A DNA stretch of 64,000 nt from Flaccisagitta enflata (lineage: Eukaryota). The position numbers and the translations under genes are program-made. Position 1 is the first letter of the stretch, and every line of letters begins with the position of its first letter. The stretch spans positions 17,236,001-17,300,000 of the forward strand of contig OZ231126.1 in the NCBI GenBank assembly GCA_965153355.1, written 5' to 3'. Below, in pieces: positions 1 through 46,595 of the stretch. The notes under the pieces are model-generated. The model saw only the letters and a program-made list of their open reading frames with translations, ran no database searches and had not been told where the DNA came from.

Positions 1-5
1 TGGCG

Positions 6-3710: not shown

Positions 3711-4425
3711 GAACAAGTAACGCGGGGTCACAATATTGTTGCGGACGGGTGGGCAGGAGCGTCCAACCCTCATCTCTACCCCAACTCCCAACACACACAT
3801 AAACTTACACGAAAAGTGTCTAAAATGCTCATTTTTGGGCAACAACCCCGAAGGGGTTGATATCCTATGCTTTCACACAGGGGAAGTTTCTCCTTCTCCT
3901 TCTTCTCCTTCTTTGTCCCCCACCTCCGACCTCCAGGCCCATATCTCAGCTTCGAGGCCCATATCCCAGCCTTGAGGCCCAAATCCCAGTTTTGAGGCCC
4001 AAATCCCAACCTCAAGTACCAAATCCCATCTTAAGGCCAAAATCCTATCTTTGAGGCCCAAATCCCAGCCTCAAGGGATTTGGGCATTAAGACTGGGATT
4101 TGGGCCTCAAGGCTGGGATATGGGCCTCAAGGCTGAGAAATGGGCCTGGAGGTTGGGGGAGGGGGGACGGAGGAGAAGGAGAAGGAGGAGAAGGAGAAAA
4201 TTTAGCTGTGTGAAAGCATAGGTCATCGATCCCTTCGGGGCCGCTGCCCTGCTCCTACCCTCAAATACAATCATGACCTACCTAAGCAGGGCACGGGTAC
4301 GGCTGACCACCTAACGCTTTTGCGACTATTCCACTTTTCGACATGGTGACCCCGGACCAATGGACGAACCGACGGATCAATGGATGGAGAAAGCCTCTCA
4401 TAGAGTTGCGTGTCCAAAACTAAAA
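3711..4425 (-). mobile_element. HINE-like element with a second element nested at about 3833-4330
   Basis: The outer family (AACAAGT.ACGCGGGGTCACAATATTGTTGCGGACGGG ... TAGAGTTGCGTGTCC..AACTAAAA) is split by a GGGCAGCGGCCCC-family element with about 20-bp GAGGCCCAAATCCCAGCCT repeats in both orientations. Confidence 0.7.
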
Positions 4426-4554: not shown

Positions 4555-5255
4555 TTTCGGGCAGTGGCCCCAAAGGGTTGATATCCTGTAGGACACAGGG
4601 ATGAATTTCCAGATGTCTGTACATATGTAAATCCTCTCCCATTAGAGGCTGCTCAAGCCCCTCTTGGGCCTCTAATTAGCCCTCTTGGACCCCAAATCAA
4701 CCCTCTCATATCCAAAGTTTGCCCTTCTACATCCAAAATTAGTCCTCGGGCTCAAATTCAGCCTACCCAGGCCTAGAATTAACCCTCTCAGATCCCAAAT
4801 ACCTTGTTTAAAGCAATCAAATGCCCTCAAATTTGCCCTCTCACCTCCATGTCCTGTTCTCATTCCAATTTTTCAGCTAATCACTTTAAGTAGGGCATCG
4901 GTACCGCTGACCATGTGCGATCCTTGGATGACTATTCTCAATGCCCTTTTGTTCGTTTGTTCTTACGTCCCCCCCAGGCCCTCTCAGGCCTGAAATCAGT
5001 CCTCTCAGGCCTATACCCTGTCCTCTCAGGCCTTAAATCTGCCTTCTCAGATTCAAGGCCTGAGAAAGCAGATTTCAGGCCTAAGAAGGCAGATTTCAGG
5101 TCTGAGAGGGCAGATTTCAGGCCTGAGAGGCCCTAGGGGGACGGACATATGGACGAACAAACGAACAAAATTCCCCCTGTGTTCTACAGGACTTCGTCCT
5201 CTTTGGGGCCGCTGCCCTGCCTCCTCTCATTCCAATTTACAACCATGCAAAGCGT
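4555..5255 (+). mobile_element. Two adjacent GGGCAGCGGCCCC-family elements with 21-bp CTCTCAGGCCT repeats
   Basis: Share the GGCCCC.AAGGG..TCCTGTAG.ACACAGGG start, internal 21-bp repeats and GGGCCGCTGCCCTGC / GGTACCGCTGACCA ends. Related copies at 11115-11305, 14638-15120 and 18121-18749. Confidence 0.65.
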
Positions 5256-5997: not shown

Positions 5998-6146
5998 TTT
6001 TTAGTCGCAGGCACGCGACTCTACACCTTGCCGTGTCGGTCCGTCCGTCGTTCGATCGGTCGGTCCGAAATGTTTTTGAATTGCGAGCGGTTTTTGCATT
6101 ATTGCCCAACCGTCCGCGACTGGATTGCCGTGTATCAGGCCTTGTT
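5998..6146 (+). mobile_element. HINE/DINE-1-like element
   Basis: Same family as 2064-2199. Confidence 0.75.
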
Positions 6147-6210: not shown

Positions 6211-6365
6211 AACAAGGCCGGATACACGGCAATCCAGTCGCGGACGGTTGGGCAGGAACAGTAATGCGAAAACCGCTCGGAATTCAAAAATGTGACGGAC
6301 GGACGGACGGAGCTACCGACCGACCGACACGGCAAGGTGTAGAGTCGCATGTCTGCGACAAAAAA
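6211..6365 (-). mobile_element. HINE/DINE-1-like element
   Basis: Reverse-orientation copy of the 5998-6146 family (AACAAGGCCGGATACACGGC ... GTAGAGTCGC). Confidence 0.75.
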
Positions 6366-8665: not shown

Positions 8666-9142
8666 GAGACAGAGACAGAGACAGAGACAGAGACAGAGAC
8701 AGACAGTGACTGAAAAAAAAACGGATAGCATAAAGTTGACTGTTAAGGGGTCAACATTGACGTCCGCATAGAAGATTGTACCTTGCTGCAATAATTGATT
8801 GAAATAAAAAGTGTTGCATTGTTAATATGTCTCTTTTAATTCTTGGTGTATCGATGTCATGACTCATGGTCGCCCGGTTGAGTTAGAAAGGTGTATGACA
8901 AAGCAGCGGGTATCTCACATTTCATTGCTGCCAAGGCTTTTTTACGTTTCATTTAGCTAGTTAGTTTTCGTGTCCTGGATGTAGAATGTTTCGTCTAGGT
9001 TTCGCAATTTTGTCCAGGACACGGTAAAGAGCAAAACTTATCTATCAATAGTTTTCTAATGTTTTGCTGCCAGCTCTAAGACCGTACGGGTCAAAATTTC
9101 GTATGGTAGAAAGGAAATCAAGAAGAAGGAGAAGAAGAAAAA

Positions 9143-9612
9143 GAACCAGTGACGCAAGGTCACAATATTGTTGCGGACGGGTGGGCAGGGGCATCCAACT
9201 CCCATCCAACACCCCACTACACACACACAGTATCTAAAACGCTTGTTTTTAGATGCGTCCGACAGGAACGCATCTCTATAAGAGAATCTGTCCGTCCGTC
9301 GGTCCGTCCGTCCGTCCGTCCGTCCGTTACGCCTGTGCAAAAAACGCGTTTCTCGGCTGTTTTTGGCCACAGTGACATCCTACACTGAAACAAATGATCA
9401 GCCAACATGTTTTGAGAGTCTTTTCACCCTTCTGTTCGTCCATCTGTCTCACCATGCATATGTCACATGATCAATACACGCTGAGACACAGTCCGGACGC
9501 ATCGTTGCACGGTCGGGCTTGTTCCACTTTTTAACTCGATCATCATGGACCCACGGACGAACCGAGCAACGGATGGACAAAGCTTCTTATAGAGTTGCGT
9601 GTCCGCAACTAA
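9143..9612 (-). mobile_element. HINE-like element with another family nested at about 9248-9522
   Basis: The outer GTTGCGGACGGGTGGGCAGGGG family is interrupted in a T-run by a TTTAGATGCGTCC..ACGCATCTCTATAAGAG element with a (CCGT)n core. Confidence 0.7.
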
Positions 9613-9760: not shown

Positions 9761-10269
9761 CGAGAACAAGTAAAAGAAGAAAACGAAGAAAACGAAAACA
9801 AGAAGAAAACAAAAAAATGGAAAACAAAAACAAGGCCCTCATCCTTGTTTTTCAGTTTGGGTATAATGAGGGAATCGACAGGCAAACACAAAGTCAAGTA
9901 GAAACATTGACAGACAGACAGAAAAACAGACAGACAGACAGACACGTAAGCTGAACGGACAGAGGTAAACAAGGCCAAGTAGGCCAACGATGCGTCCTCT
10001 TTGAATGAATGTTTTTTTATGAATGAATGTTTTTTTTATGAATGAATGTCATTTATGAATGAATGAATGATTGAATGAATGAATTACTTGATGTATGCTT
10101 CTTTTACTGGGTTAGAACCGCTTTTCTGCTGAAAAAATGCTTGATTTTGATGTTTTTAATGAATGCGTTACCGACCAACCAACCAACCAACCAACCAACC
10201 GACCAACCAACCAACCGACCGACGGACAGAGCCTATTATAGAGATGCGAGGACGCATCTAAAAAGAAAC

Positions 10270-10930
10270 TGGAATTGATCTGAAAAGACTTCAAAGGGTC
10301 ATTGTCAATCTCATTTGCATATTGCACCTCAATAGTGGCCTAGAAAAAAGACTTCTTGAATGTTCCTTTTTTAAGGCATGGATGGGTCTCTCAAAGATCA
10401 TTTGTCCATAAGCCTAACAATCAAGTCCATCTCTTTATATCTGCAACGCTTAAGAGTCATTCCACTACTGGACCACTACTATATAGGAATTCATTTTGCT
10501 CCTAACAGTCTAAGACAAAAAAAAAGGTAAATAAAACGTTTTTGAAAACCTTAGATAATTATGCTATTTCTAAAAGGGTGTAAATCTTCCCATTAGACAA
10601 CCAATTATACCAGTCTACGCCCTTTACACCCTGGCTTGTTGAATAATGAGATGAATAAGGAGGTAAAGCACCTTTCGTTTGCCCTCCATCTCTTTATTAG
10701 ACATATTATACAGATAAAACAGTGCAAAAGACTGAGAAGGGTCTCTAAATTTCATTTGCATATTGCAGCTCTACAGTGTCCTAAAAAAACTTCCTGAATG
10801 TCATTATTTAAGGGGCATTGATTGGTCTCTAATAGATCTATTAGTACAACCATCAAGTCCATCCCTTGATATCTGCAAGTGAATGCATTATTGGATCACC
10901 AAAAACCAACAAAAACATTCACCTTTGCAA
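10270..10930 (-). repeat. Two diverged units (about 440 bp period) of the octamer-containing repeat, reverse orientation
   Basis: ATTTGCAT at 10313 and 10754, each followed by ATTGCA.CTC.A.AGTG.CCTA.AAAA..CTTC.TGAATG ... ATCAAGTCCATC.CTT.ATATCTGCAA. This is the reverse complement of the units at 13956-18900. Confidence 0.85.
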
Positions 10931-13900
10931 AACTTAAAACATTATGGAAATGACAAACAAGTGTTAGTTCTTCACTTGAGTACAGATACCCTCACAAACT
11001 AATCTATGGCCTTTACACATATTGGCACACGAGCAATCTGGCCGCTTTTAATCGAGTATTAAAAGATAGAGAACCATCTAATTGTCTTCCACCCCCAAAT
11101 CAGCACTCTAGTCCTCAAATCTGCCTTTGGTGACCTAAACCAGTCATCATTGGCCCCTTGAGGATGTCTGAAAATTCACCCCTGTGTCCTACAGGACATC
11201 GGCCCATTGGGTCCCCTGCCCTGCTCTCAATCAACTTCTTCACCTGATCACTCCAAGCAGGGCATCGGGTACCGCTGACCATGTGTGATCCTTGGATGAC
11301 TAGTTTCAACCTATTAACCATGGCCAAAAAAAAAAATGGCACACTCATCTTTAAATGCAAGCTGATTCGCTCTCTTTAGATTAAACTATAGAAAATCAGT
11401 GACCGTTAGAAAGATCTTCGAAAGTTCTTTTAAACTAGACCAAGCAGAATATTGTGAGTTTTTTTGTTTAAAAATGACAACTAAACAGAAGCTGATTAAT
11501 TTTGCTTTTGCCTGAGAAATTCATTCTATCATCAAAATTCTCTTGTTTCTTCTAAGTGCAACGGGTATCAATAAAAATTGAAACGCAGTTCAGAGCAGCT
11601 AGAGACGCAAGCGATTTTTTTCTGGACGTAGACAGTTTCATAGAGCTTCTGCTAAATGTCATGTTCATGGTCTCTTGCTTTATTAGTGTAGTCAAACAAA
11701 CAGTTGAAAGGAAAAGATTCAAAAAGTCATGAATAAAACACATTTAGGGAAGCACAACATTCATGTTTTGTAGACCAAAAGGAAGGTCTTAGTCTCCTCT
11801 TTAATCTAAGACAAAAAACGAGTTGTTTTATGTCTTAGCTTCTTTCAAAACAACCAAAATAAACAATGTCGTTGTTCCCTTTTTTCATGTCTAAATCAGA
11901 CTAAAGAGGGCCACCACTTGTCTTTTTTCTCAGTCTCTTCTCATCTTTCCTGAAAAAAAAGAGCAAAAGGCACTTGAAACCTCTGATCTGCACTTGAAAG
12001 GTCTTGAGAGAGGTCAAAGACTGCAGGGACAGCAGCAGTAGGACCGCAGCAGTAGAACCAGTCTTGTGAGAGGTCAAAAACTGCAGGGACAGCAGAAGTA
12101 GAACCGCAAAGAAAAATTTGCTGTAGTTTGATGCCATCTTGAGTTTTCCCACTAAACTAGGCAATGAAAACAAAAGAACAAAAGACTTTTAAGTATGAGT
12201 GAAGCCTTTTTTCAACTTGCATTTGATTTACTTGGATTGAGTGACATAATTGTTTTTCAATATTTCATCAATGAATCTGACACTTTTAAATTTGAAGTGA
12301 CAAAATTATTCACAAAAAAAAAATTCTGTGATGAACTACATAAGCTATGAAAACATTTGCATTGCCCAGAAATTGCCTAGTTCTCTGAAATTGATTTCAT
12401 TTGTGTCTTGTATAACAAAGGTAATATTGAAGGTAATAAAGAAGTAGCACAAGACCAAATATCTCAATTATCAAACTACTGAAAGTTTGTGTTGCAAAAA
12501 TTGTTTAAGCACATAAAAATATCTCTCATTTATGATGCTAGATGCCAAGCCATTAAGAATTGACATGACTGCAGTATGCAAATGATTTCTTTTTACTTAC
12601 TTTCAAAGTTTGAATCAGACATTCACAGCAGCTTGTATCAATCCTTATTTACATATTGCTGAAAGTTTCTTTTTGAATCTTCAGTGATGTAAAACAGAAA
12701 CAAAAAGGTATTCAAAATGTGAGTTTGGGCTCTGTGCTGTGTGGAAAGAACACTTGACCCAAACTGCATCTATTTCTTTTTTGGTTAAAGAGTTCAATTC
12801 CAATTTTATGATTTTCAACAGCTTGATCTACGCTTGTTTCAACCTGCTATTGTCAAAGGATAAAAGCCCCATCAAAAACTAAATCAAAATACTGCTTCTA
12901 AAGTATGAGTAATCAAGGCCTACAATTCAAATGCAGGTGATTATTATACCATGGAAAAAAAAGTGACACTCCTAGAAATTGATCAAGCCTCCAAATCAGT
13001 AAGACATGTAAGGTATCTACAAAACTATAGTACAAATATATTTGACACTTGTAGCACCTACAGTGACTCATAGCAATGAAAAAAAAAAATCTCAGAAATA
13101 ATTATGAGGGACTGATCAATGACTGTTTAGAAAGAGAGATAATTAGAGTGAGACAGACTGTAACAGCAAAGTGTTAGGTTCTGCCAAATTTTGCGTTACC
13201 TTGATTAAATATGATTTGACCTATTAAACAAGCTTCATGTTTACCATTGTGATGAATAAGGAATTTGCCTGAGGTCACAGATGAAAATGAGAATTACTGC
13301 AGTGAGGAAAAATTTTTTCCTGCTTACATTCAATGACCATATGACATGATCAAATAACCCCGTACTAAGTAAAAAAGACAACCATAGCAGGTTAAAACGC
13401 ATGCAGCAATATGCAAACTAGATTTAGTTCCATTTCTCCAACAACAAAAATCAAAATGATATGAGAATCTCATTAGCATAATGATGTTGTTGTGTATTTC
13501 TGTCACTCTACTTGTTGATGATTTAAAAGAACATACACAAGGCCAAGTAGGGTGCGACATGTGGATCATCAAATGAATGCGCTACCAATCAACCAACCAA
13601 ACGACTGACCACCCGTTGGACACAGCCAGTTTTAGAGGTGCTTTGTTGCACCTGATAATGCAGCTGTGGTGATAGGTCACTCTATCTCATATTGCATAGA
13701 ATGGCTAATATAAACAAGGCCGGATTTATGGCAAGACCGTTGCAGATGGTTGGGCAGGGGCCGTAATGCAAAAACTGCTCGCAGTTCAAAAAAGTTAGTA
13801 GCTTACCAACCTACCAACCTATCAACATGGCGAGGTGTAGAGTCGCGTGTTGGCAACTAAGAACTTAACACATGGTCAACAGGGCAGTCTTTCCTCTATG

Positions 13901-14637
13901 AATTCTCATTTGAAATAAGCAAAATGCTTTATGTACCAGTCACCTTCATTTGTTAGACTGTGAGGAGCAAAATGAAATCAAATATGATAGTGGTCAAATT
14001 ATGGAATAGCTCTGAGGCATCGGAGATTTCAAGATATGGACCTGACTGTTAGCCTGATGGACTAATGATCTACAAAATATCGATTCATGCATCTAAAAAG
14101 AAATGTTGAGGAAGTTTTTTCTGGGATACCATAGAGCTGCAATATGCAAATAAGATTGACAGTGTGCTTTCTCAAGATTTCATTTTGTTTTAGCTGCCAA
14201 GCTAGTTGAAAAAGTGGGTGGAAAACAAGTGGACACTTCTCTATCTCTTAATTTTCAATAACAAATAATCAGACGGCCCATGAGTTACTGAGTGTATAAA
14301 GCATAGATGTTAGGACCTCTTAGAGGAGTGCTAAGTTAAACAAACAGAAATGCCTTGACCTTTTTTTAGGTATTCTTAAGACTGCAAGGAGCAGAATAAG
14401 TTCCAATATCATAGTGGTCAAAGTATGGAATGGCTCTTAGGCATTGCAGATATCAAGAGATGGACTCGACTGTTAGACTGATATACTATTGATCTACTGA
14501 AGGAGGACCTATGCACCTGAAAAAAATGACATTCAGGAAGTTTTTTTATGGTCACTATAGAGCTGCAAAATGCAAATTAGATTGACAGTGTCCCCTCTGA
14601 GCCGTTTGTAATATTTTGGCTTCAAAATACCTTGAAA

Positions 14638-15120
14638 CTAGTTGCCCAAGAATATGTGGTCAGCGATACCCGTTGCCCTGCTTTGCATAGTTGTGAATCA
14701 GAATAAAAGGAATTAGGGCAGCGGCCCCAAAGGGGACAAAGTCCACTGCAGAACACAGGTGACCTTTGTTTGTTTCTCCGTCCGTAATCCATTCCCAAGG
14801 CCCTGTCCGGCTCTCTCAGGCTCTCTCAGGCCTGAAATCTACACTCACAGTCCTGACTCTGAGAGGGCAGGTTTGAGGCCTGAGAGAGCATATTTCAGGC
14901 CTGATAGGGCAGATTCAAGGTCCTAGAGGGCAAATTTCAGGCCTGAGAGGGCAGATTTTAGGATTGAGAAGGCAGATTTCAGGCCTGAGCAGGCAGATTT
15001 CAGGCCTGAAAGGGCTGATCTCAGGCCTGAGAGGGCCTGGGGGAGACAAACAAATGGACAAACAAACTAAAGTTCCTCTGTGTTCTACAGGACTTCATCC
15101 CCTTTTTGGGCCGCTGCCCA
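14638..15120 (-). mobile_element. GGGCAGCGGCCCC-family element inserted in an array unit
   Basis: 21-bp AGGCCTGAGAGGGCAGATTTC repeats and family ends; the flanks rejoin to the unit consensus TTGAAAAAAGGGGT.GAA. Confidence 0.75.
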
Positions 15121-15990
15121 AAAAGGGGTAGAAGACAATTGAATGAATCTCTCTCTCTTGATTCTCATTTATATTTTGCCAGATCACTAGCAAGTCAATG
15201 GTTAAATGAGGGAAGAACTGAGATAACCTTTATGTCTTAATCATGCGTGGTTCTATGTTATTTTTTGGGTCCCTGTAAAACTGTTAGGAGCAAAATGAAT
15301 TTCATTATGAAAAAGATCCAAATATGAAATAACTCTTAGACATTGCTGAAGTCAAGTGATGAACCTATGTATTGGACTATTAGACCACTGATCTACTAAA
15401 GAGCAATCAATGCCCCTGAAAATAAGACATTCAGGAAGTTTTTATTAGGTCACTAGAGTGCAGCAATATAAAAATAAGATCGACAGTAAGTCCTACTGGA
15501 ATCTTTTCTCATACTGTTTCAGCTGTACAAAGGTTAAAATAAAGAGTGGAAGCATAAATGAATAGATTATCTATGTGTCAGCTTGCATTGTTAACCAACC
15601 AGATTACTCTTTGGAGTTCTGACTTGCAGAGTCAATGAGTATGCATTACCAATTCAAAGGTTGGGCCATGAAATAAATAATTTTATATGCCTCAGCCCCC
15701 TCAAGTTCATTAGATTTTTTCAGTGGTTTGTAAGACTGTAAGGACAAAATCACCTATGAGAAAGCAGTGGTCAGTTATGGAATGGCTCTGAGGTATTGCA
15801 AATATCAAGAACTGGACTTGACTGCAAGACTGATGGACTAATGATCTACAAAACGCCGATTCATGCACCTGAAAAAAAGTAATATTCAGAAAGTTTGTTC
15901 TAGGTCACTATAGAGCTGCAATATGCAAACAAGATTGACAGTGTCCCCTCTCAGTGTTTCATACTGATTTGGCTGCAAAATTGGTTGAAA

Positions 15991-16163
15991 CAAGGCCGGA
16001 TACACAGCTACCGTGCGGGTGGGCAGGGGCCACATTTGAGGTCTAGGGACCATCTTGTATAGGCAGAGGTCAAAGAAATGAAATCATAAAAAAAAGTAAA
16101 ATTGCGACCAACCGACCGACTGACAGATGGACAAAGGTGGTTGTAGAGTCACTGGCACGTGAC
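15991..16163 (-). mobile_element. HINE element inserted in an array unit
   Basis: CAAGGCCGGATACAC ... GTAGAGTC..GCACGTGAC ends; the flanks rejoin to the unit consensus. Confidence 0.75.
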
Positions 16164-18120
16164 AAAAAAAGGGGTGGAAAACAAGAGGAAGGTTCTCTGT
16201 CTCTTAATCATCCCTAACAACTGGTCAGATGGCTCATCAGTCAATGGGTGAAAAAGGCATAGACTGGTTCGTAAGGAAATCTGAAGAGAACACGTGACAC
16301 AGGTTCACAAGTTCATTGCGAATGGGTGGGCAGGGGCATCCAACCCCAACGCCCCACTTCATACACACAAGATGTATCCAAAACGCTCAACTTTCCATTT
16401 TTCTACTCAATCACCTCTACAGACAAACCAATGGAAAAAACGGACAGTCAAAGCGTTTTATAGAGTTGCGTGTCTGCAAATATAAACTGAGTTGAGTTAA
16501 TAATTTTTCAAAAATGCAATTATTTTTCACGTTAGCTGATGTGAAAAATTTTTTAAGTGTTTATCTGACAGTAAGGAGCAAAATGAATTTCAAAATGATA
16601 GTGCTCAAATTATGCAATGGCTCTTAGGCATTGCAGATATCAAGAAATGGACTTGACTGTTAGACTGATGAACTAATTAACGACTAAAGGCCGATCTATG
16701 CACCTGAAAATATGTCATTTAGGAACTTTTTTTATGGTCACTGTAGGACTGCAATATGCAAATGAGATTGACAGTGTCCCTTCTCAGTCTTTCATACTGT
16801 TAAAGCTGTGTGATAGGTTGAAAAAAGGGGTGGAAGACAAAAGCATGGTCCTCCATCTCTTATTGCGCACTAATAACTCATAAGTCAATGATTCATTTGG
16901 GGAAGAAAAGAGATGAGACACATGTTATTACTGATGCAGTAAGCACCGATAGATGGCTTTTGTCTCTAGATTATTCACAAAATAGCCTCTAAATACAAAA
17001 TGGTCCAACATACAGGACTCTAGGCATGCTATAAAATTCATGGCTGATTTTTGGACCAATGATCTAAGTTAGAGATAATTTATACCCTGAAAGAAAATGA
17101 GATTCAGGATACTTACAGATTACTATAGAACTGCAATATGCAAATGAGATTGACAGTGTCCCTACCCAATATTTATACTGTTTTAGCTGCATGAACCATT
17201 AAAAAGAAAAGAAGACAGCTTATAGGTCTTCATCTGTTAGTTTTGTTAAAAGCCAACCAGATTGCCCTTGACTCGTGAGTCGTATATGTGGTGGAACTTC
17301 CTGAATAATTGGGGAGATCACAGTCAGCCATCATCTTTTCTGTTCATGCCCCCAAGTGATTTGTGGGATTTTCAGGGTCTTTGTCTGACTGTAAGAGCAA
17401 ACCAAGTCATAAAACATAGTGGTCGGCATGGATTTGGCCTAGGGCCTTTGCAGATATTAAGAAAGTTTCTGATTACACTGCTAGACTGATGGACTAATGA
17501 TCTACAAAATAGCTGATTCACCTTCAAAAAAACATATCTGTGAAGTTTGGTCTGACGTGAATGAAAAGGCAATATGCAACAGATTGGTACCTTCTCAGTG
17601 TTCCATACTGATTTGGCTTCAACATTGGTTGAAAAGAAAGGGGGGGAACAAGTGGAAGGTTCTCTATCTCTCAATTCTCACTAACAACTGATCAGATGGC
17701 TCGTGAGTCCAATAGTTGTGGAGGGCATAGACTGGTTTGTCAGGGGACCTGAAGAGAGGAACTGAATTAAATTCACACTTTTTCAGAAACGCAAAGATTA
17801 GTTATTAGGTTATCTAAGTCAGCCTAACACCCTTTGAGAAGTAACACAGTTTTTTAAGATTTGTTGAAAAGAAGTGTTTTTTTGGTCTTTTTAGACTGTT
17901 AAGAGCAAAATGAATTCCAATATGATAGAGGTCCAATTACAGAATGACTCTTAAGCGTTGCAGATATCAAGAGATGGACTTGATTGTTAGACTTATGGAC
18001 CGATGATCTACTAGAGACCAATCAATGCCTTAAAAAAAAAAGGGTATTCAGGGAGTTTTTTTCTAGGTCACTGTAGTGCTGCAATATGCAAATGAGATTG
18101 ACAGTGCTCCTTCTAAGCCT

Positions 18121-18749
18121 TTTTTTGGCAGCGGCTCCGAAGGGGACGAAGTCCTGTAGAACACAGGGGGACTTTCGTTCGTCCGTTTGTTTGTTCATTC
18201 GTTCGTCCCCCCCCCCCTCATCAGGCCCCTCAGGCCTCAAATTTGGCCTCTGAGACCTCAAATCTGGCCTCTCAGGCCTCAAATCCGGCCTCCCAGGCCT
18301 CAAATCCAACCTCTCAGGCCTCACCTTGGGCCTCTCAGGCCTCAAATTAGGCTTCCCCTGCCTCAAACCGTACCCCTCGGGCCTCAAATTAGGCCTCTCA
18401 GGCCCTTAATCAGCTATCTAAGCCTCAATTTACTGCTCTCAGGCTTCAAATCAGTCCTCTGACCTTTCAAGCCTTAATCCAGCTCTCTCATGCCTCAAGT
18501 CAGCCCTCTAAAGCTTCCGATTGGCCTCATTTCAGCCTTCTCAGGCCTCAGTTTAGGCTCTTGGAGACCTTCAGTAAGCCCTCCATAGCATTTTATCCAC
18601 TTCTTCAGGCAGGACAAACGAAAGTGACCCTGTGATCTACAGGACTTCGTCTTCGGGGCCGCTGCCCTGCTTCCCTCACTCCAATTCACAATCACTCAAA
18701 GCAGGGCAACGGGTATCGCTGACCACATATTGCCCTTGGGCGACCTGTT
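18121..18749 (+). mobile_element. GGGCAGCGGCCCC-family element with 21-bp repeats
   Basis: GGCAGCGGCTCCGAAGGGGACGAAGTCCTGTAG start, CTCTCAGGCCTCAAAT repeats and CAGGGCAACGGGTATCGCTGACC end. Confidence 0.75.
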
Positions 18750-19911
18750 ACTATTTTAGCTGCATAAAATGTCGGGAAAATGGGTGGAAGACATATGGAC
18801 GGTTCTCTGTCTGTCAGTTCTCATTCAAAAATGGCAAGGTTGCCCATGAATGGGTCAAAAGGGTTCTGACAGGTTTGTGGCGATGTCTAAAGGGAAGGGC
18901 AAAGATATTGTTAAGGATATAAGATTAGGTTGCAGTGAGCCCCAATAATTGAGACAAAGAACAACCAATGCAGCCAAGTATCATTTTGCTCTGGCATATT
19001 TCCTCTTCAAAAATACTTTTTATATCACAGTGAAAGAAACTTTTAAACCTACATCACAAAAGATATCTTTTGACATGAACAAAATATGGATCAAATCTAT
19101 AGTTCATGGATTTCATTCTGAAGCATTTTTGAAGTAATAAGAAAAAAAAATTGATTAAAATCATAAACAAGAGAGGTTTAATTGCACTCTACAATATGCA
19201 AATGATATTGAATCTGGCCTGAAGAAAGTCAAAATGTTAGCAAATGAAAATATCTTGTTCTCCTCTTACAAAAATGGCCGTGATTTGGATTTGGCAAAAA
19301 TTTTAGTCAATAGATGCAGAACTCTGAAGGCAGAATCTTTTTGATGATGTTTATCAATCAATCAATCAAACATTTTTGGTTTTAGAAAGCAAGTTTTTGT
19401 CAAGAGGAAGATTGGCTACACCTTTAAAAACCCATGAAATCATTTGCATAATGCAGATATTGTTTTCTCCTGATCAAAATCCTCAGCCACGTTGCATGTA
19501 TGAATTTATTGTATTCTATCATAAATCTTGACTCTTGAAGATGTCCAGTTCTCAAGTATCTTTCTGTTTCATGTCTTGTTCTGGTGGGAGGACACTGTCT
19601 GTCAACAAATCTCACTCATTCAAAAGGAATGTTTATGACCTTCCACTTCAACATTTGTTATCATTGTATAGGTTTTTTGAGGGGACAGGAATAAGGGGCT
19701 TATCTTTTATTAAAATGTCAAAGGATTAACATTGAAAACAAATTCTCAGATTAGTTATCTTTTGAGGAGTTTCAGTTCAGACATTCAAAAGGCATAAAAG
19801 ATGCAATTAAGCCTAGGTTTTGAGAGTTGATTTCAAGGTTAGGATTTAGTCCCATGGGAGGGGTGAATTTAGAAATAGGGATGATTAAGGAAATAGCCGC
19901 AAAAGCATTAG

Positions 19912-20482
19912 ATGGTCAGCGGTACCTGTGCCCTGCCTATGTACAGTAGATGTCGTCTAGACTTGGAAATATGGGGGAATTCATTACAGGAAGATGAATA
20001 AACTTAAGAGAATGTTATTTGGAATATAGATTAATTAAAGGATACTTTATTGCCCATGGGTGTTGGTTCTCCTCCGTCCCTCCCCTCAAATCCCAGTCTC
20101 GAGGCCCAAATTCCAGTCTCGAGGCCCAAATCCCAGTCTTGAGGCCCACATCCCAGCCTCAAGGCCCAAATCCTAGCCTCAAGGCCCAAATCCTAGCCTG
20201 GAGGCTGAGATTTGGGCCTCAAGGCGTGGATCTTGGCCTCTTGGCTGAGATTTTGACATTGAGGCTGAGATTTGGGCCTCAAGACTGAAATCTGGGCCTC
20301 CAGGCTAGGATTTAGGCCTTGAGGCTAGGATTTGGGCTGAGGCTGGGATGTGGGCCTCAAGACTGGGATTTGGGCCTGAGAATGGAATTGGGCTTCAAGA
20401 CTGGGATTTGAGGGGAGGATGTAGGAGGAGAAGGAAAATCCCCATATGTGTGAAAGCATAGGTCATCGACATGGGCTGCCCA
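19912..20482 (-). mobile_element. Element with about 20-bp GAGGCCCAAATCCCAG repeats (family of 3833-4330)
   Basis: Internal repeats in both orientations and the shared motif TGTGTGAAAGCATAGGTCATCGA. A further copy lies at about 55795-56232. Confidence 0.65.
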
Positions 20483-20530
20483 AAGGATAAGAGACAGAGT
20501 GTGACAGAGTGTGACTGTCCTTTTCTCTCT

Positions 20531-25458
<4,928 letters not shown>

Positions 25459-25489
25459 GGATGAAAAGGCTGGACACACCGCTACCCCA

Positions 25490-25950
25490 GTCATATGCCC
25501 TATCCCCTACCTTCAGACACACCCCTGGACTCACCCCTACCTTTTGACTCACCCCTAACCCTAGACTAGCCCCTACCTCTAACTTCCCCCTGCTGCCTAC
25601 TCCACTCCTACCTCTTACCCCACTCCTACCCTTGACTCGACCCCCACCACGGACCTTTGACCCCATACTCAACCTCCACCCCTTACCCCTAGCTCGCCCA
25701 ATCCTATCCCTAACTCCACCTCTACCCCTTACTCCACCCCTAACTCAACCCCTACCCTAACTCCACCCCTATCCCTAACTCCCCCCACCCCAAACTCAAC
25801 TCCTATCCCTAGTCCCACCCCTTCCCTTAACTCCACCCCTTACTCAACCCCTACCCAAGAACTCAACCCTGCACCGAAATCTACTCCTTATCCCAACCCC
25901 TTTCCCACAAGCCCTAAACTGTACACCTTTACCATCATTCTCAACCCCTA
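25490..25950. repeat. Degenerate C-rich repeat (CCCTAACTCCACC-like)
   Basis: Many CCC tracts at 6- and 12-bp periodicity. Confidence 0.8.
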
Positions 25951-28900
25951 GACCTAATTAAATTTCCATTCTTAAACATTACTTGCAATTCTAAACCCTT
26001 GCTATGCATTTAAGCTCTACTTACTTTCCTAAGACTATATTTTCTTTGAAAAGAAAGAAATGGTATTTATAACAATCTTTACCTCTTCTACCCTCCCCTG
26101 CAAAATTTTTCCTTGGTTTCATGTTATTGAAGATGAAAGTTTGAAACTTTTTTCAATGAGTGAGATTGATTGACAGATAGTTTCTTGCTTCCAATTTAAG
26201 AGGCAGATAAAAAAGGTTTAAGCGATTAATATATTATCAAGAGTCATGATTAATCATTGATAAGAAAAAAAGTCAACTGCAAAATATGGATCAATACATT
26301 GATCAGGCCAAGTCAGTTTCTGCAATATGCAAATGATTTCATCAAACTTTGAAGATGCAGCCAATCACTTTTTTGCCTTTAATCATAAACCAACATGGCC
26401 ACAGACACAGTCGCCCAATTGCGGATGGGTGGTCAGGGGCAGTATAGCAAAAAACACATTTTAAAAAAGATACAAATAGACAATTGGACTGATGGACCTA
26501 CACAGCAAGTTTGCAACTGAAGATATTGGATTTATGAATACACAATATTGTTTTGTTAGGAAAAATTTTGACTTTCTAAAGGTTAAGGAGATTGAATCAG
26601 TGTCAATCTCATTTGCATATTGTAGTAGATTAGCTATCCTCTCTTGAAGTAAGATGTTCTTTGCTGTTGACTACAAAAATATTGTTTTTTGAAACCCATG
26701 AACTGACAAGTTGATTTATATTGTTCATCTTTCTTTTTTTTTTCATGTCAGAGGATACTTCTCATTATGTAGTTTCAATCATTTCATCCTCTGATGTGTA
26801 AATAGTAAAATCATATCACCTAAAGGATCTATGTCTATAATTGTTTTTAATTGAGTGTTGGTAACCTGAAGAAAAACTTGGGAACTTTTACTTAAAACAC
26901 AAGTAGGTTTTTGATTCATTGATGATTTGCTCTTTGAACCAGAACTGCTGCTTTAAACGATTTCTGAAGTGGGTTTGCCTGACCTATGGGCCATTACAAT
27001 AGATATCTTTCATGACCTTAGAGCTTTTATATCAATTGACCAGTGTCATATTAGCATTGCTCACATCCTCAAAAATGGATGAAATGTAAATACAGCCTTT
27101 TAAATAAAGCTTTTTCCAAGCAACTTGAGTCCTAATTAGCATATTGTTACGCTATCCAGATCCAGCCTGTTGTGCATTAGAACTCATGAACCAACTAGTT
27201 CTCCTCTAGTCTCTCCTGTCAACCATGGTGCCTGCATTGATAACACTGAATGAGGAGAGACCATTAATCTCATTAGCATATTGCAGCTCTCTTAGTACCT
27301 GATAAGTAGCCATCCCAATGTCAGTTTTAGAGGCAGGTTATTTCATCTCGTTTAGGGAACTAGTCCACTAGTCCAACAATTGATGCAAAAACAATTAGTG
27401 CACAATGTTCTTGAAGCAACTAGATCAGTTGACAGCAACTGTAGTAGCATCCATTTCACTCCTTACTGTTTGATTATGTTTTAAAAAAATATTATAACTA
27501 TAAGATCTTACACAACAAAAAAAGATGAACTTTGCATAGTCAATCAATGAATTTCTCTCCTGGGATACCTCTTTACCGCTAGTATGGTCAACTACTATCT
27601 AGAACATAAGTATATCGACAGTATGGGGATTGGTTAATTTAGCAGTGTAGGAAACCTAGAAAAACCGCCAAAACATGTCAGATACTTAATACTACGTCTT
27701 TGGGTTTCAACACATATTTGTATGTGGATTTTCTAAGCACTTTAACACAAATGCTTTGTATAAATGCATGATAACTCTCCCTCATAAAATCTTATTTAAA
27801 AAATTCCTTAGTGTATGCCATGTTCTCCCTTTTGCTTTAGTTGCAATCCCAATGACTCAGAGAGGTTGAAATCAACCAAGATAATGAAGCAAAGGTGTTG
27901 GGCGCTGTAATTAGGACCAAAAATAGGGTGGAAAAAACCTCTAATCTATCTGAAAGGAGACTTAGTAACTAGTAAAGAATTTAGATGCATTTTTTTGGCC
28001 ATTTTCTAATTGAAGTATCAATCTTGTTTTGCCTGTCAATTCTAAACATCTTAAGCTAAAAGGATGCGGTTTGCGGCATTTGGTCAGAAATTCGAAATAG
28101 TTTCAGAATCTCACTGATTTTTATATAAATTTCTTATTCTTAACAGAGTTATTGCTTAAAATGCCTGTCAATATACATATGTTCTAGATAGTATTTGGAT
28201 AATCCTTTGACCGAGTAAGCATGATTATATAAGATTTATGGAATGGAATCAACCAGTCGTTCCTCAGTCATGTGTTCAGAGTAGAGGGACCGATTAATTC
28301 ATTAGCATATTGCAGCTCTATGTTAGCCTGTCAAATGGCCTCCTGTTGTCATTTTGATAGGTTTGTTGAATCAACCCATGGTGATCATTGGCCCATTTGT
28401 CTAATAACTAACTCAGTCTTTTCAATTATGCAATGTCCTTGGAGCAAGAATATAATTTTACGACTATCATGAGAGCATCTATTTGACTTCCTTAGGATTG
28501 GTTAAATCCCTTAATTCACAAGGTGTAATAGTGAGTTCAGTTATGCTAAAGTAAAGGAGCTGTGTAGCTGCTTCTTGCTTTTGTTCATTCAGTACATTGC
28601 AATGAAATCTGGCTGCAGTTGAACATGTCAAATATTGAAAAGGGATATACAAAATGATTTTAAGTGAGTTCAAATCCATGGTGTCCCAGTTAAAGATCTT
28701 TCCATTTATACTCTGATTGTTTTAAGTCTGATATGCTTTTTTTTGAAAAATAAACTGTCAAATGTATTTGCATTTTTTCAAAATGAATGGCCAACACAAT
28801 TGAGCTTGTCTTTAAAGATGAACATTCATCTTTAAATTTGTTTAACCACACTTGTAATATCTCTTTGTAAATATCAGTCACCTTAACCCTGAATCAAAAT

Positions 28901-31156
28901 GATATCCACACTGTATTTACAAGGAGAAAAAATCTTTATTTTACCAAGATTTCAACCATGAAATTTGATGCTACAATATGCAAATGAGATGGTACATTGT
29001 TGAAGAGAAAACAAAAAAGAGTAGTGATGTTCTGACTTCATTTGCATAAAGCAGTTACTTTCATTGAGATTGGTAGCTTACTGTTTCCATATCCATGGCA
29101 CTAAGTTTTTGCCCTCAATGCTGCTGGCAGCCAAAATTGTCAATTTTTGAAATGACAAATATGATATCTTTACATGTGGGCTACATTAAAATGTTTAAGT
29201 AAAAGGGTATACATTTAGCCAAATGGTTGTGACTAAAATATGTATATCAAAAGCACAAAATCAAATATCGGATTGACTTATTAACAGAGGAATAAGTCAA
29301 TAAATATAATAGTTAAATATGGCCTGTTGCATTTGCATGAACAAAAGGATTTAATCTTTCCTCTCATCCACCACAATTTTCATCCCATTTTGTCTATTTC
29401 AAGCAGCTATAGTACAGTGCTTTTCTTTTTTGCTTTTTCTTATTTGCATATTGCTGTTTTTTTATTTGCAAGCCCTCTTTGTTGCCGTTTCATGTTTTTT
29501 GTTCCAAGTTTGTATTAATCAAATGGCAATAATTCAAATCATTCCTCTAAGATGGTAGGCACAATATGCATGTTAACAGCATAGATTCAAATTTGGTTCA
29601 ATTATAAAATCTTTCATGGTTTAAGCAACTGGGTTAGATTAACTCTTGGTGCATATACTCAATCAGCCATGAATATATGATTTGTTTATTTATTCTTAAA
29701 AGTTAGTGTTTAAGAACATTTCTGTTGAGGATGATCTGCGCACCTCCTTATTTGCATATTGCTGTTGGCCCATTTTAAAGCTGTTATAGCTGAATTAGAG
29801 TCAATCTTTTCTATCTTGTCAATCAGAAAACATGAGATTACAATACATGAAATACTAAAGCAAAAAAAAATCTGAAAAATCTCAAGGCTAAGAGTAAAAT
29901 CTGGTTTGTGAAGTAGAGATCCTTGATTAAAAAATTGATGGCTTTGTTTCCAATCAAACTTTTTTGATCAAATTTCATCATTGACAAGTTTCGCTTATAT
30001 CTTTACATAATACAATTTTAGCCCACCACAAAAATACATTAGCAAAAGTAAGAAAATTGGGAATCCGGGATGCAATATGTTCATCACAACCAAGGTTTGC
30101 TTTGTTTGTCTGAAGGCAACATGGATGACTTAGAGGGGCTTGCCTTAACTGTTTTTGAATGTGAAATGACCTTGCTTAGCTTGACATGGACTGGGGCTTG
30201 GCTTGGATCAGGAAGGATTGGCTTTGCTTGACTTGGTTTGGCTTGGCTTGGCTTTGCTTGGCTAAGTTAGATTGCATTGAGGAAGTGTCTTTGATTCAGA
30301 GGGTATTACTTGTTACATGTTTAGGACATGTAAGATGAATCTTTTGACTACCAAGCTCTAGGCCTCCTCTCCTTTGTAAAAAAGCTGCAGCAAGAAAACA
30401 AAAGACAATTTAGTTTTCTTCAAAAACACTGGTGCAGCACTGACTAGGGAAACTACCCTTTTGTCCCGGGCTCTGTAGAAATTTTTCACCAGGAATTTGT
30501 TTATTTTGATTTTCTTTGCAATGGTGCATGATAAAATTAAAATTCTTTCACCAAACTGTTAGCTATGTTACCCGCTATCTTTTGTTATTTCATTGTTTTT
30601 TCCTAGGTGCCCTAACAAAAAAGCTAACCTATCAAAAACTGTCTCCAATTTTTATTCGAACACCCGTTACGATTGGGCGAACGAGACAACCGAAGGATGG
30701 ATCAGTGACGACCTACTGATGTTCAAGTTCAGGTGGGCGACTTGATGTTCAAGTAGGTGGGTGGGTCGCTCGATAGCATATCTTCTCCACGACGCGATCT
30801 CGAGGATTTTCTCTTTACTTCTTCATCTCTCATTTCTATCATGTTTTTGACATCTCTTAACCTTCATAACAGGAGGAACCATATCCCTCACCATACCCAA
30901 ACTGAAATTAATGGAAGAGGGCCCCGCGAGCCCCTAACCGACCAGTCATCACGCGTATCACTCCTAGTTTTCCATAAAACAGAAACTTAATAACATTCTT
31001 TCTCAATCTGACCCAAAAGAAAACTGCTTCCCAAAAGCAGTTAAAGGCAGATATACGAGATGAAGTGATGGATAAATGGACAAATTGACTGAGGGGTCGG
31101 AAAACAATGACAGGGGACGGCGGGCCTATGAATGATGGATTCATTGAGAAAAAAAA

Positions 31157-37280: not shown

Positions 37281-37317
<37 letters not shown>

Positions 37318-37321
<4 letters not shown>

Positions 37322-37572
37322 TCGAATGATTGTCGCCTCATGCTCAGCATCAACATCATCATAGAACCGAGTCATAAAGGAAGATGATAGCCTGCTATAA
37401 CGCGCGTAGCTTAATTTGTAGATTGTCTATTTTTTATGTTTCTTTCTTGCAATTTATCAAATGGAATGGGATGCCTCTCTCTTCTTCGCTCACTGTTCGG
37501 TAAATAGTAGTAATCATGTATTCATGTATAGAAGCGTCTCGGCATCATGAAATCATATCAACAATGTCAACC
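37318..37572 (+). repeat. Local duplication, copy 1 (copy 2 at about 41901-42154)
   Basis: Near-identical 255-bp unique sequence. Confidence 0.92.
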
Positions 37573-40129: not shown

Positions 40130-40258
40130 TGTGCGTGTGGGTCAGTGTGTTCTGGTCTGCATGTCTGTCGGTTTAGGTAAGTAGTGTTTTACTAATCAGT
40201 TTTTATGATTTGGTACTGCCAAAAATTATATTTCCCCTAAATTTTCTTTTTTACTCTT

Positions 40259-40421
40259 TTTTAGTTGCGGACACGCAACTCTATAAGAGGCTTTGTCCGT
40301 CTGTTGGTTGGTTGGTTGGTCGGTCCGTCGGTCCGTCACGCTTGAGCTGAAAAGTGGGAAAATGCGCATTTCCGCCCCTGCCCACCCGTCCGCAACTGGT
40401 GGCCGTGTATCTGGCCTTGTT
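40259..40421 (+). mobile_element. HINE/DINE-1-like element
   Basis: TTTAGTTGCGGACACGCAACT hairpin, (GGTT)n core and GGCCGTGTATCTGGCC stem-loop. Confidence 0.75.
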
Positions 40422-41900: not shown

Positions 41901-42255
41901 GAGTGTCGAATGATTGTCGCCTCATGCTCAGCATCAACATCATCATAGAACCGAGTCATAAAGGAAGATGATAGCCTGCTATAACGCGCGTAGCTTAATT
42001 TGTAGATTGTCTATTTTTTATGTTTCTTTCTTGCAATTTATCAAATGGAATGGGATGCCTCTCTCTACTTCGCTCACTGTTCGGTAAATAGTAGTACATG
42101 TATTCATGTATAGAAGCGTCTCGGCATCATGAAATCATATCAACAATGTCAACCTGTCTACGAATATTCACAACAGATTACATCCAGTCAATATCACATT
42201 GGCGTCTGTCATTCGGCGTGCGTAATGAGTAGAGAGAAATACGGCTCCCAGCAAC

Positions 42256-42257
<2 letters not shown>
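41901..42257 (+). repeat. Chimeric duplicate of 37318-37572 joined to 41080-41190
   Basis: Both parts match their sources almost base for base. Confidence 0.9.

Positions 42258-45340: not shown

Positions 45341-46595
<1,255 letters not shown>

Follow-up and report, generated by a model that had tools for sequence, protein, structure and literature searches.

A repeated box with an octamer core, a putative protein-binding site, in a decayed local repeat array of Flaccisagitta enflata

The window analyzed here, a 64-kb stretch of contig OZ231126.1 of Flaccisagitta enflata, holds 19.5 kb of non-coding, decayed repeats that carry about 24 copies of one box of ~20 bp (Table 1). The cluster coincides with a CpG-depleted domain of ~20 kb, with per-kb CpG observed/expected values of 0.11-0.55, compared with mostly 0.6-1.4 at 1-10 kb and after 31 kb. 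The box domain is gene-free and no coding exon was found; the nearest long ORF (3-1454) had no convincing homologue, and 59 + 123 ORFs yielded 0 relevant Pfam matches and no transposase-like ORF. Searches for tRNAs and for Rfam families at gathering score also gave 0 matches, none of the 40 Rfam matches below threshold touches a box or one of the repeat units described below, and no conserved RNA fold was detected on either strand of 10 of these units.

Table 1. Repeat units, boxes and larger features of the locus (window coordinates; scores are weight-matrix scores)
Feature	Position	Strand	Evidence
Family-A unit	10253..10510	-	nhmmer E 4.2e-65
Family-A unit	10692..10932	-	nhmmer E 1.5e-52
Family-A unit, first of 8-unit run	13956..14215	+	nhmmer E 8.6e-71
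Family-A unit	14380..14641	+	nhmmer E 1.8e-75
Family-A unit	15279..15544	+	nhmmer E 3.5e-62
Family-A unit	15734..15995	+	nhmmer E 6.6e-72
Family-A unit	16567..16827	+	nhmmer E 3.9e-76
Family-A unit	16969..17209	+	nhmmer E 4.4e-41
Family-A unit with degenerate box	17387..17639	+	nhmmer E 4.8e-24
Family-A unit, last of run	17894..18150	+	nhmmer E 8.7e-72
Decayed family-A unit, right arm	27232..27470	-	nhmmer E 1.6e-12
Decayed family-A unit, right arm	28279..28495	-	nhmmer E 6.4e-12
Box, family A	10308..10325	-	0 mismatches; score 29.4
Box, family A	10749..10766	-	1 mismatch; score 30.4
Box, left of inward-facing pair	12571..12588	+	3 mismatches; score 25.7; flanks unalignable
Box, right of pair with 12571, 53 bp between	12642..12659	-	4 mismatches; score 22.3
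Box, left of inward-facing pair	13406..13423	+	2 mismatches; score 26.7
Box ATGCTAATGAGAT, right of pair with 13406, 43 bp between	13467..13484	-	2 mismatches; score 23.0
Box, family A	14139..14156	+	score 31.4
Box, family A	14565..14582	+	score 26.6
Box, family A, octamer degraded to ATAAAAAT	15463..15480	+	3 mismatches; score 21.2
Box, family A, octamer ATGCAAAC	15918..15935	+	score 28.9
Box, family A, perfect	16751..16768	+	0 mismatches; score 33.3
Box, family A, perfect	17133..17150	+	0 mismatches; score 33.3
Degenerate box, internal deletion, in unit 17387-17639	17569..17584	+	15/18 in unit alignment; no weight-matrix match
Box, family A, perfect	18081..18098	+	0 mismatches; score 33.3
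Box, left of left arm's inner pair	19191..19208	+	score 28.1; flanks homologous to 26606(-) flanks
Box, right of pair with 19191, 228 bp between	19437..19454	-	score 26.3
Box, mirror partner of 19437(-)	26322..26339	+	score 28.9
Box, mirror partner of 19191(+), 266 bp from 26322 box	26606..26623	-	score 30.6
Weakest box, ATGCTAAT	27130..27147	-	4 mismatches; score 16.5
Box ATGCTAATGAGAT, decayed family-A unit	27267..27284	-	0 mismatches to W-pattern; 17/18 vs 49% outside
Box, decayed family-A unit	28296..28313	-	2 mismatches; 14/18 vs 45% outside
Box, left of inward-facing pair	28973..28990	+	score 30.6
Box, right of pair with 28973, 44 bp between	29035..29052	-	score 22.6
Box, unpaired	29437..29454	-	score 28.0
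Box, unpaired	29745..29762	-	score 26.7
Satellite- and palindrome-rich centre between arms	19990..25900		TRF arrays and inverted matches
CpG-depleted domain, ~20 kb, coincides with box cluster	10001..30000		per-kb CpG observed/expected

The box, C[T/A]RCAATATGCAAATGAGAT, matches the window 21 times with up to 3 mismatches, where 0.19 matches are expected. Matches to the 18-mer GCAATATGCWAATGAGAT at the same tolerance, again 21, all lie within 10308-29762, and allowing 4 mismatches gives 27, of which 25 fall inside this region and two outside it (54709 and 61265, 4 mismatches each). We built a weight matrix from the box copies and called a copy solid at a score of at least 16.5, which returned 24 solid copies (12 per strand) that are confined to 10308-29762 and absent from the remaining 44.5 kb; the only further matches scoring at least 8 were at 15162 (9.1) and 49765 (9.8), within the range of 1-10 per shuffle seen in 20 shuffles. 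The strand usage, the span (10313..29757) and the absence of the extended form elsewhere in the window all agree with the preliminary description, and so does the repeated site itself, whereas its count of about 28 is too high: adding a degenerate box at ~17569 and two possible ones with 2-bp deletions at 12355 and 27050 would bring the total to 24-27. It had also named ATGCTAAT as the commonest octamer, which is wrong, as ATGCAAAT occurs in 16 of the solid boxes and ATGCTAAT in 4, the remaining 4 carrying other variants; the two exact ATGCTAATGAGAT boxes that it read on the minus strand at 13472 and 27272 are present (13467-13484 and 27267-27284), and ATGCAAATGAGAT occurs in many boxes. The octamer pattern ATGCWAAT has 31 occurrences in the window where 6.15 would be expected, a number reached in 0 of 100 shuffles, and 24 of the 31 fall in 10313-29757. 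After masking, every 10-mer of the region that is not of low complexity and occurs at least nine times is a substring of the box, and no other k-mer of this length was enriched. Spacing between boxes is irregular (62-1029 bp), information is highest in the core TATGCAAAT, and the box contains no CpG.

Eleven of the boxes lie in a non-coding repeat that we call family A, present as 12 units of ~260 bp with a period of ~420 bp, and 13 lie outside it. The units, called by nhmmer with an E value for each copy, are 75-85% identical to one another and show no sign of the concerted homogenisation that is usual in functional satellites. Eight of them form a head-to-tail run in one orientation (+, 13956-18150). 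All 12 are local, whereas the other repeat families of the window are scattered across the whole 64 kb, so within the window family A does not behave like the ordinary dispersed repeat that the preliminary description had set against its own reading. The box is internal to the unit, with conserved sequence on both sides, and is adjoined by a TATA-like CTATAG that is not kept across copies.

Within family A, the box changes far more slowly than its surroundings. Across the 12 copies, identity to the consensus is 92% in the box and 71% outside, and Fitch parsimony gives 0.61 steps per site against 2.08 elsewhere, a 3.4-fold difference, so that the box is better kept than the unit, contrary to the other outcome that had been set against selection. 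It is the least-changed 18-bp window of the unit (rank 1 of 244), and its 11 steps were matched by none of 165 independent, non-overlapping windows, the minimum among which was 22. Even the two copies that have decayed furthest retain 17/18 and 14/18 box positions, with only 45-49% matching in the remainder. Outside family A, the information content falls to about zero directly past ~17-20 bp, no element is conserved at a constant offset from the 13 boxes, whether to the left or to the right, and BLAST among their contexts (±250 bp) found only box matches of 20-23 bp except in one mirror pair, in line with the earlier remark that the flanks barely align. Similarly, 23 of 26 alignments between the right and left arms are box-centred and 21-49 bp long, and at 26606(-) the family-A model matches the box alone (model positions 183-214, E 3.3e-5).

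Outside family A, ten of the 13 boxes are arranged as five inverted pairs that face inward and measure 79-302 bp end to end; their interiors cannot be aligned as one family, and none of the pairs is bordered by target-site duplications. Along the window come pair 13406/13467, the run of family-A units (+), pair 19191/19437, the centre, pair 26322/26606, the minus-strand family-A units and pair 28973/29035, with both pair types keeping all four boxes on both arms, and the flank 19410-19625 matches 26366-26150 at 69%. The centre contains TRF arrays (a 20-mer, (TC)161, the 10-mer TCTTCATGTC in both orientations and telomere-like arrays) and inverted matches (20780-21198 / 25456-25038 at 89%). This mirror-symmetric order around a satellite-rich centre points to an old inverted duplication. 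CpG observed/expected is 0.28 in the arms, where TpG and CpA reach 1.28 and 1.26, compared with CpG values of 0.95 and 0.79 in the flanks, suggesting germline methylation, which would be as much at home in a gene body or silent repeat chromatin as in a regulatory platform.

From a single locus with copies that share a common descent, we infer that the box is under purifying selection, and its slower change, together with the strictly local family-A copies, makes a selected protein-binding site the best reading. We give about even chances to an old local array maintained by selection as a putative binding platform, carried by repeats, on which a sequence-specific protein of POU-like or multi-zinc-finger type would dock. 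A unit of ~420 bp, consisting of a conserved 260-bp core and a decaying spacer, would have been amplified head to tail in a purely local, non-coding array with one box of ~20 bp per unit, having the canonical octamer ATGCAAAT as its core. Inverted duplication around the centre, now filled with satellites, may then have copied both the array and the box pairs beside it, and the left arm would have expanded further. The rest of the units presumably drifted, older copies beyond recognition, while purifying selection held the box because, as we propose, a DNA-binding protein reads it. The perfect octamer core makes a POU-type factor a candidate reader, and the ~15-20 bp under constraint make a multi-zinc-finger architectural protein another; the constraint does extend further than a POU domain usually requires by itself, which is a point against this reading. 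Together, the ~24 sites could act as a homotypic docking platform, such as a clustered enhancer or a chromatin-organising element, with the inward-facing pairs as sites of two-fold symmetry. The locus shares with homotypic transcription-factor clusters of enhancers and promoters a statistically extreme local enrichment of a single motif on both strands. Typical clusters of this kind span hundreds of bp, unlike the 20 kb seen here, where tandem and inverted copying of a carrier repeat demonstrably produced the sites. The binding platform proposed in the preliminary description is partly supported, by differential conservation and locality, and not in its statement on the commonest variant or its small-RNA promoter version.

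A neutral repeat without function, in which mere luck or the most recent homogenisation would account for the box within a decaying local duplication, seems very unlikely to us. All copies are kin by local duplication, so cell counts overstate the independent evidence; some window must rank first; and a box devoid of CpG escapes the fast CpG decay of the domain. Short-tract homogenisation among family-A copies may have contributed to the likeness of their 11 boxes, a point against our main reading. However, CpG sites are far too few to account for the gap in identity between box and remainder, no independent window comes near the step count of the box, and the box survives in 13 contexts with no detectable flank similarity, where gene conversion is unlikely for lack of flanking homology. 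A dead selfish element would be expected to decay evenly, at odds with the 3.4-fold slower box, and we consider it quite unlikely that the box is a terminal or sub-terminal transposase or recombinase site, with the pairs as tiny MITE-like elements and the whole mirror as a foldback-type transposon with arms of sub-repeats. The inverted pairs and the large inverted arms around the central region do resemble foldback and MITE-type DNA transposons, which have inverted arms of sub-repeats and short inverted pairs. Unlike such elements, the locus lacks target-site duplications at all five pairs, a transposase, and copies in the other 44.5 kb, where the true dispersed repeats of the window do occur, and its motif decays more slowly than its carrier; the pair interiors form no single family, and the family-A box is internal. 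Of the transposase-site version put forward earlier, only the inverted pairs speak in its favor.

A promoter array, with the box as an octamer/DSE-like or PSE-like upstream element of short non-coding transcripts, would turn the inward-facing pairs into divergent promoters and the CpG-depleted 20 kb into a transcribed cluster of small RNAs or long non-coding RNA. Promoters of snRNA, histone H2B and immunoglobulin genes are known to carry the octamer upstream, both strands are used, the ATTTGCAT strands point outward in the pairs, and domain-wide CpG depletion with an excess of TpG and CpA resembles gene-body methylation in mosaic-methylated genomes. The Rfam, tRNA and folding results nevertheless removed the support for the small-RNA version, and with no fixed-distance element beside the 13 boxes outside family A and a CTATAG that is not kept, we hold this explanation to be highly improbable. 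Unlikely, too, is a centromere-like or chromatin-identity repeat, with a kinetochore, pairing or insulator protein drawn to its box, much as the CENP-B box or the Meloidogyne box persists in otherwise divergent monomers; this would be the binding platform again, in a particular form with a structural rather than transcriptional output. The box common to otherwise unalignable units, the head-to-tail run of 8, the satellite- and palindrome-rich neighborhood and the CpG-depleted, gene-free domain would all suit it, as would the Meloidogyne precedent of a 19-bp box in divergent repeats (PMC8097292); against it stand the small number of irregularly spaced boxes (~24 in 20 kb), the 75-85% identity of the units with no concerted homogenisation, and a box sequence unrelated to the GC-rich one of that study (PMC8097292).

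The Meloidogyne holocentromere repeats are tandem repeats of 32-51% identity with a common 19-bp box bound by CenH3 chromatin (PMC8097292). They share with our locus a box of ~19-20 bp in otherwise highly divergent units, short arrays embedded in unrelated sequence, and selection on the box deduced from its contrast with a fast-evolving remainder (PMC8097292). The Meloidogyne box is a GC-rich dyad in 45-84-bp monomers with ChIP and cytological support (PMC8097292), unlike the present AT-rich box with a POU octamer, which lies on both strands in ~420 bp units or unique flanks. The CENP-B box of primate alpha satellite is likewise a protein-recognition box, of 17 bp, recurring in tandem monomers, but it has another sequence and occupies megabase-scale homogeneous centromere arrays (PMC2289308, PMC2173396), whereas our boxes lack regular spacing.

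The Su(Hw) cluster of the gypsy insulator, located inside a retrotransposon, is a many-copy homotypic cluster that works collectively and packs 12 sites into 340 bp, whereas the 24 here are spread over 19.5 kb; its sites have an octamer-like TGCATA core and AT-rich variable spacers and are read by a 12-zinc-finger protein with a ~20 bp footprint (PMC2374998). Our box agrees with YRYTGCATAYYY at 9 of 12 positions and with the long consensus given there (PMC2374998) at 8 of its first 14, a partial match that makes it an analogue and not a member. Comparable, too, are the Oct-1 octamer and (OCTA+)TAATGARAT elements, with which the box shares both main octamers and the two exact ATGCTAATGAGAT copies; the HSV immediate-early core element ATGCTAATGARAT, recognised by the VP16/Oct-1/HCF-1 complex, carries the variant ATGCTAAT (PMC4447252). 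The box has neither a viral context nor a nearby promoter or gene, unlike these elements, and its additional 5′ constraint C[T/A]RCAAT is absent from them. Because dependence on VP16 is peculiar to herpesviruses, the likeness to GARAT is probably coincidental.

We confirmed that octamer-like sites are clustered in this window, as the preliminary description had held, and the cluster is statistically robust. There are 31 occurrences of ATGCWAAT where 6.15 would be expected, 24 of them within 10313-29757, and an extended 18-mer with at most three mismatches gave 21 matches against 0.19 expected, every one within 10308-29762. When the whole window was scanned with a weight matrix for the box, the ~20-bp motif containing the octamer, 24 copies scored at least 16.5, 12 per strand and all confined to this region (30% of the window), while the other two matches of at least 8 (9.1 and 9.8) were at background level. 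As the scores are bimodal, 24 is a firm count, and the ~28 copies first reported are slightly too many; up to three further candidates exist, one near 17569 with an internal deletion and two possible 2-bp-deleted copies at 12355 and 27050. The octamer reads ATGCAAAT in 16 of the 24 boxes, ATGCTAAT in four and other one- or two-base variants in four, so ATGCTAAT was wrongly named the commonest form, but the two minus-strand ATGCTAATGAGAT sites noticed at the same time are present. A POU/octamer core, either the exact ATGCAAAT or the accepted variant ATGCTAAT, is found in the boxes, and the locus has the local excess of a single motif beyond chance that characterizes a homotypic binding-site cluster. 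No second motif was co-enriched with the box, and no other 10-mer was comparably enriched.

Eleven of the boxes lie inside copies of family A, a non-coding repeat unit with a conserved core of ~260 bp and 12 copies in the window (profile search, E 3.9e-76 to 6.4e-12), and there the box is better kept than its carrier. Across the 12 copies, identity to the consensus is 92% in the box window versus 71% outside it, the box tying for first rank among 244 windows by consensus identity. With the tree built from columns outside the box, the box's own 18 columns required 11 Fitch steps (0.61 per site) versus 2.08 per site elsewhere; the median per window was 37 steps, and the minimum was 22 among 165 non-overlapping, well-occupied windows. 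Even the two most decayed units kept 17/18 and 14/18 box positions, versus 49% and 45% of their remaining columns. When the right and left arms, the two halves of the mirror-ordered locus, were compared by BLAST, 23 of 26 alignments were box-centred and 21-49 bp long, the other three being one 223-bp inner-pair flank and two of an unrelated repeat. The box is conserved above the rest of its monomer and common to divergent monomers, as in a box-bearing satellite, and the earlier claim that the sites are kept while their surroundings decay withstood the comparison of box columns with the rest of the unit. Outside family A, information is high over about C-N-RCAATATGCAAAT-RA and zero on either side, a profile of copies picked by their box match, which shows sharp edges and not conservation itself. 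Pairwise identities of the flanks, computed with free end gaps, carried too much noise to be of use (null matches up to 95/150) and were set aside.

Ten family-A copies occupy the left part of the locus (10253-18150); eight of these, all on the + strand, appear to follow one another head to tail, their starts lying 402-899 bp apart. The ~160-bp spacers between cores are still weakly alignable, indicating a true period of ~420 bp, and the wider spacings are due to other repeats inserted there. TRF made no call on this array; its eight units share one orientation. In most family-A copies (e.g., 16769-16776), TGACAGTG directly adjoins the 3′ side of the box to form AGATTGACAG, which we take to resemble the PBX-MEIS decamer TGATTGACAG; TGACAGTG is conserved next to the box in family A only and is absent as a conserved feature from the other contexts.

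For the 13 boxes outside family A, similarity of their surroundings to one another or to family A could not be detected past ~20 bp, except that the contexts of 19191/19437 and 26606/26322 are mirror copies of each other. Ten of these 13 boxes form five inward-facing inverted pairs, a box on + followed by a box on -, with between-box gaps of 53, 43, and 44 bp in three pairs and 228 and 266 bp in two. Order and orientation are mirror-symmetric along the locus: pair 13406/13467, a family-A run (+), pair 19191/19437, the centre, pair 26322/26606, family-A units (-), and pair 28973/29035. Inverted matches are found in the centre (~20-26 kb), as are satellites oriented both ways. Our reading of this arrangement is that a segment already bearing boxes in three settings probably underwent inverted duplication long ago, and that the left arm may then have grown further in tandem; arm-to-arm sequence homology covers the inner pairs and family A only, and the outer pairs rest on order, orientation, and spacing.

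Coordinates of repeats and other features in the window
Feature	Position	Strand	Details
Decayed family-A unit	27232-27470	-	profile search
Decayed family-A unit	28279-28495	-	profile search
Inverted match in centre	20780-21198 vs 25456-25038		89%
Inverted match, inner-pair flanks	19410-19625 vs 26366-26150		69%
Degenerate 10-bp satellite TCTTCATGTC	21390-23216, 24768-25198, 44105-44289	both	strand switch near 22780; recurs 20 kb away
Telomere-like interstitial run (ACCCTA x5.5)	25266-25298		
Degenerate CCCTAA-like array after the telomere-like run	25523-25856		18-34-bp units
20-21-bp tandem arrays as local palindromes	3935-4147, 4980-5128, 14859-15036, 18220-18460, 20087-20410		
Dispersed ~150-190-bp repeat	2061-2201, 5998-6146, 6211-6365, 13712-13864, 24049-24213, 45340-45526, 62538-62705		7 copies, 68-88% identity
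Dispersed CpG-rich repeat	9110-9385, 40229-40522, 46150-46458, 62024-62317, and others		recurring translation …VADGWAGA…
Direct copies	37317-37572 and 41901-42154		256 bp, 98.8% identical, 4.6 kb apart
Match beside the direct copies	41080-41190 vs 42154-42257		94%
ORF open at left window edge	3-1454	+	484 aa

The box cluster also coincides with a sharp CpG-depleted domain (10001-30000), the edges of which match those of the cluster. CpG observed/expected per kb is 0.11-0.55 between 10 and 30 kb and mostly 0.6-1.4 to the left of 10 kb and to the right of 31 kb; for both arms together, the values are 0.28 for CpG, 1.28 for TpG, 1.26 for CpA, and 1.11 for GpC, versus CpG values of 0.95 and 0.79 in the flanks. 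The arms have 126 CpGs, and 58 of these fall in ~2.4 kb of mapped inserted repeats. The depletion appears to mark an old domain, set in CpG-replete surroundings, whose cytosines have long been methylated. Where animal genomes are methylated in a mosaic fashion, domains of this sort usually correspond to transcribed gene bodies; no exon was found in the CpG-depleted domain. The box itself has no CpG, and CpG sites are too few to account for the difference in conservation between the box and the rest of the unit.

Several other explanations for a repeated octamer were considered. A small-RNA promoter array, one of the functions first proposed, was not borne out, as Rfam and fold tests found no snRNA or small-RNA gene downstream of the octamers. 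Rfam gave no match at the gathering score in the whole window, ARAGORN found no tRNA gene in the window, and none of the 40 sub-threshold Rfam matches (E up to 5) in 10-30.2 kb falls on a box or a family-A unit. Consensus folds of 10 family-A units gave -1.56 and -1.72 kcal/mol on the two strands, which amounts to no structure. The three close pairs were ruled out as miRNA-like or stable hairpins by weak z-scores (-0.46 to -2.49), one of six folds being matched by at most one of 200 shuffles, and an array of snRNA-type or other RNA genes was rejected on the same results. The palindromic 20-21-bp arrays gave spurious sub-threshold matches to miRNA models, such as MIR7533 at 20121-20378 (114.9 bits versus a gathering score of 230). 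A coding role was rejected as well, with stops interrupting every one of the six frames in the family-A unit and no meaningful Pfam domain in 123 ORFs of at least 40 aa (9.8-31.3 kb), where the sole match above the curated cut-off was a PT repeat derived from an (ACCA)n microsatellite. Across the window, none of 59 ORFs of at least 85 aa carried a Pfam domain, viral or otherwise, at the curated cut-off. The box does not fit a series of splice acceptors or alternative exons either, since a terminal AG is present in the reverse complement of only 16 of the 24 copies, no ORF lies beyond the AG, and the pairs would aim exons in opposite directions.

A mobile element is suggested by the five inward-facing pairs, whose boxes could pass for terminal inverted repeats, but the box is internal and single in 11 family-A copies. 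No direct repeat that could be a target-site duplication was seen by eye beside any of the five pairs, and no transposase was found. All 12 family-A copies recovered by the profile search of the 64-kb window lie within 10253-28495, with none in the other 44.5 kb, whereas the genuine dispersed repeats of the window, such as the ~150-190-bp repeat that we used as a contrast for the purely local family A, are scattered along its full length. A SINE origin found no support in the window, given this lack of dispersed copies and of any tRNA-, 5S-, or 7SL-derived pol III head (no ARAGORN gene and no Rfam match on the units). Within the window, the unit is no evident transposon and does not behave like the ordinary dispersed one that the preliminary description had itself set against a binding site.

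The most economical reading is a putative repeat-borne homotypic binding platform, to which we give an even chance on the sequence evidence. A sequence-specific protein would read the box, selection on that recognition would hold it while the carrier drifts freely, and the output could be transcriptional, as a clustered enhancer, or architectural. A POU-type factor is suggested by the perfect octamer core and by ATGCTAAT, the variant form of the octamer that ATGCTAATGARAT, the core element of herpes simplex, carries (PMC4447252). Within the platform reading, we infer a POU reader with about half of our confidence, and a multi-zinc-finger protein would fit the constrained 15-20 bp just as well. 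We consider it unlikely, if worth stating, that the 20-kb CpG-depleted domain is a lineage-specific chromatin-organizing locus, whether for holocentromere-type CenH3 seeding, as a pairing or anchoring site, or as a domain boundary, which would be defined by ~24 octamer-containing 20-bp boxes with a dedicated reader protein and held through an ancient palindromic duplication while the carriers dissolved.

We place the box locus, as a variant, among known repeat arrays that bear a box or clusters of homotypic sites. The nearest analogue in kind is found in Meloidogyne holocentromeres, where a 19-bp box is kept in tandem repeats otherwise 32-51% identical (PMC8097292); the logic is the same and the sequence unrelated, and the Meloidogyne case is backed by ChIP. 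The CENP-B box is a second analogue. The gypsy insulator has a similar grammar, with 12 sites for Su(Hw) packed into 340 bp, an octamer-like TGCATA core, and AT-rich spacers (PMC2374998), but by the consensus given there the box fits just 9 of the 12 positions of YRYTGCATAYYY and 8 of the first 14 of the 20-bp consensus, and is therefore not a Su(Hw) site. The herpes simplex TAATGARAT element, as defined in PMC4447252, is matched exactly as ATGCTAATGARAT in 2 of the 24 boxes (13467-13484 and 27267-27284); the element belongs to immediate-early promoters of the virus, whereas Pfam scans of ORFs gave the box locus no viral context. A literature search with four 13-mers of the box returned 11 papers which, judged by their titles and abstracts, are unrelated Helicobacter, Chlamydia, and ulcerative-colitis studies, so that no published account of this box emerged from the libraries covered. 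An exact 22-mer had no match in prokaryote genome contigs, an expected and uninformative outcome.

Provided that selection maintains the box as a docking site, the locus shows how a binding-site platform forms and persists, as tandem and inverted duplication of a carrier would make the sites and selection would freeze the 20-bp site while the carrier erodes, and the 20-mer would be a ready probe for its binder and for sister loci genome-wide. Should the box prove a transposon end or neutral relic instead, this is ordinary repeat DNA.

The window as a whole has a eukaryotic, animal-like look and is ~40% G+C, and microsatellites and short satellites are extremely abundant in it (146 TRF rows). 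The ORF at its left edge contains much low-complexity sequence and a sub-threshold MARVEL-like membrane stretch (16.5 bits versus a cut-off of 32.8); a word search found no homologue, and exhaustive HMMER found three weak ones (best E 5.6e-5), none convincing. The two direct copies are the youngest duplication in the window; they and the neighbouring match may represent the LTR-like termini of a non-autonomous element, and the stretch between the copies has no Pfam domain. The ORF of the dispersed CpG-rich repeat matched only 46 proteins, all from short metagenome contigs (E ≤1e-3), indicating that relatives of the organism's DNA occur in public metagenomes.
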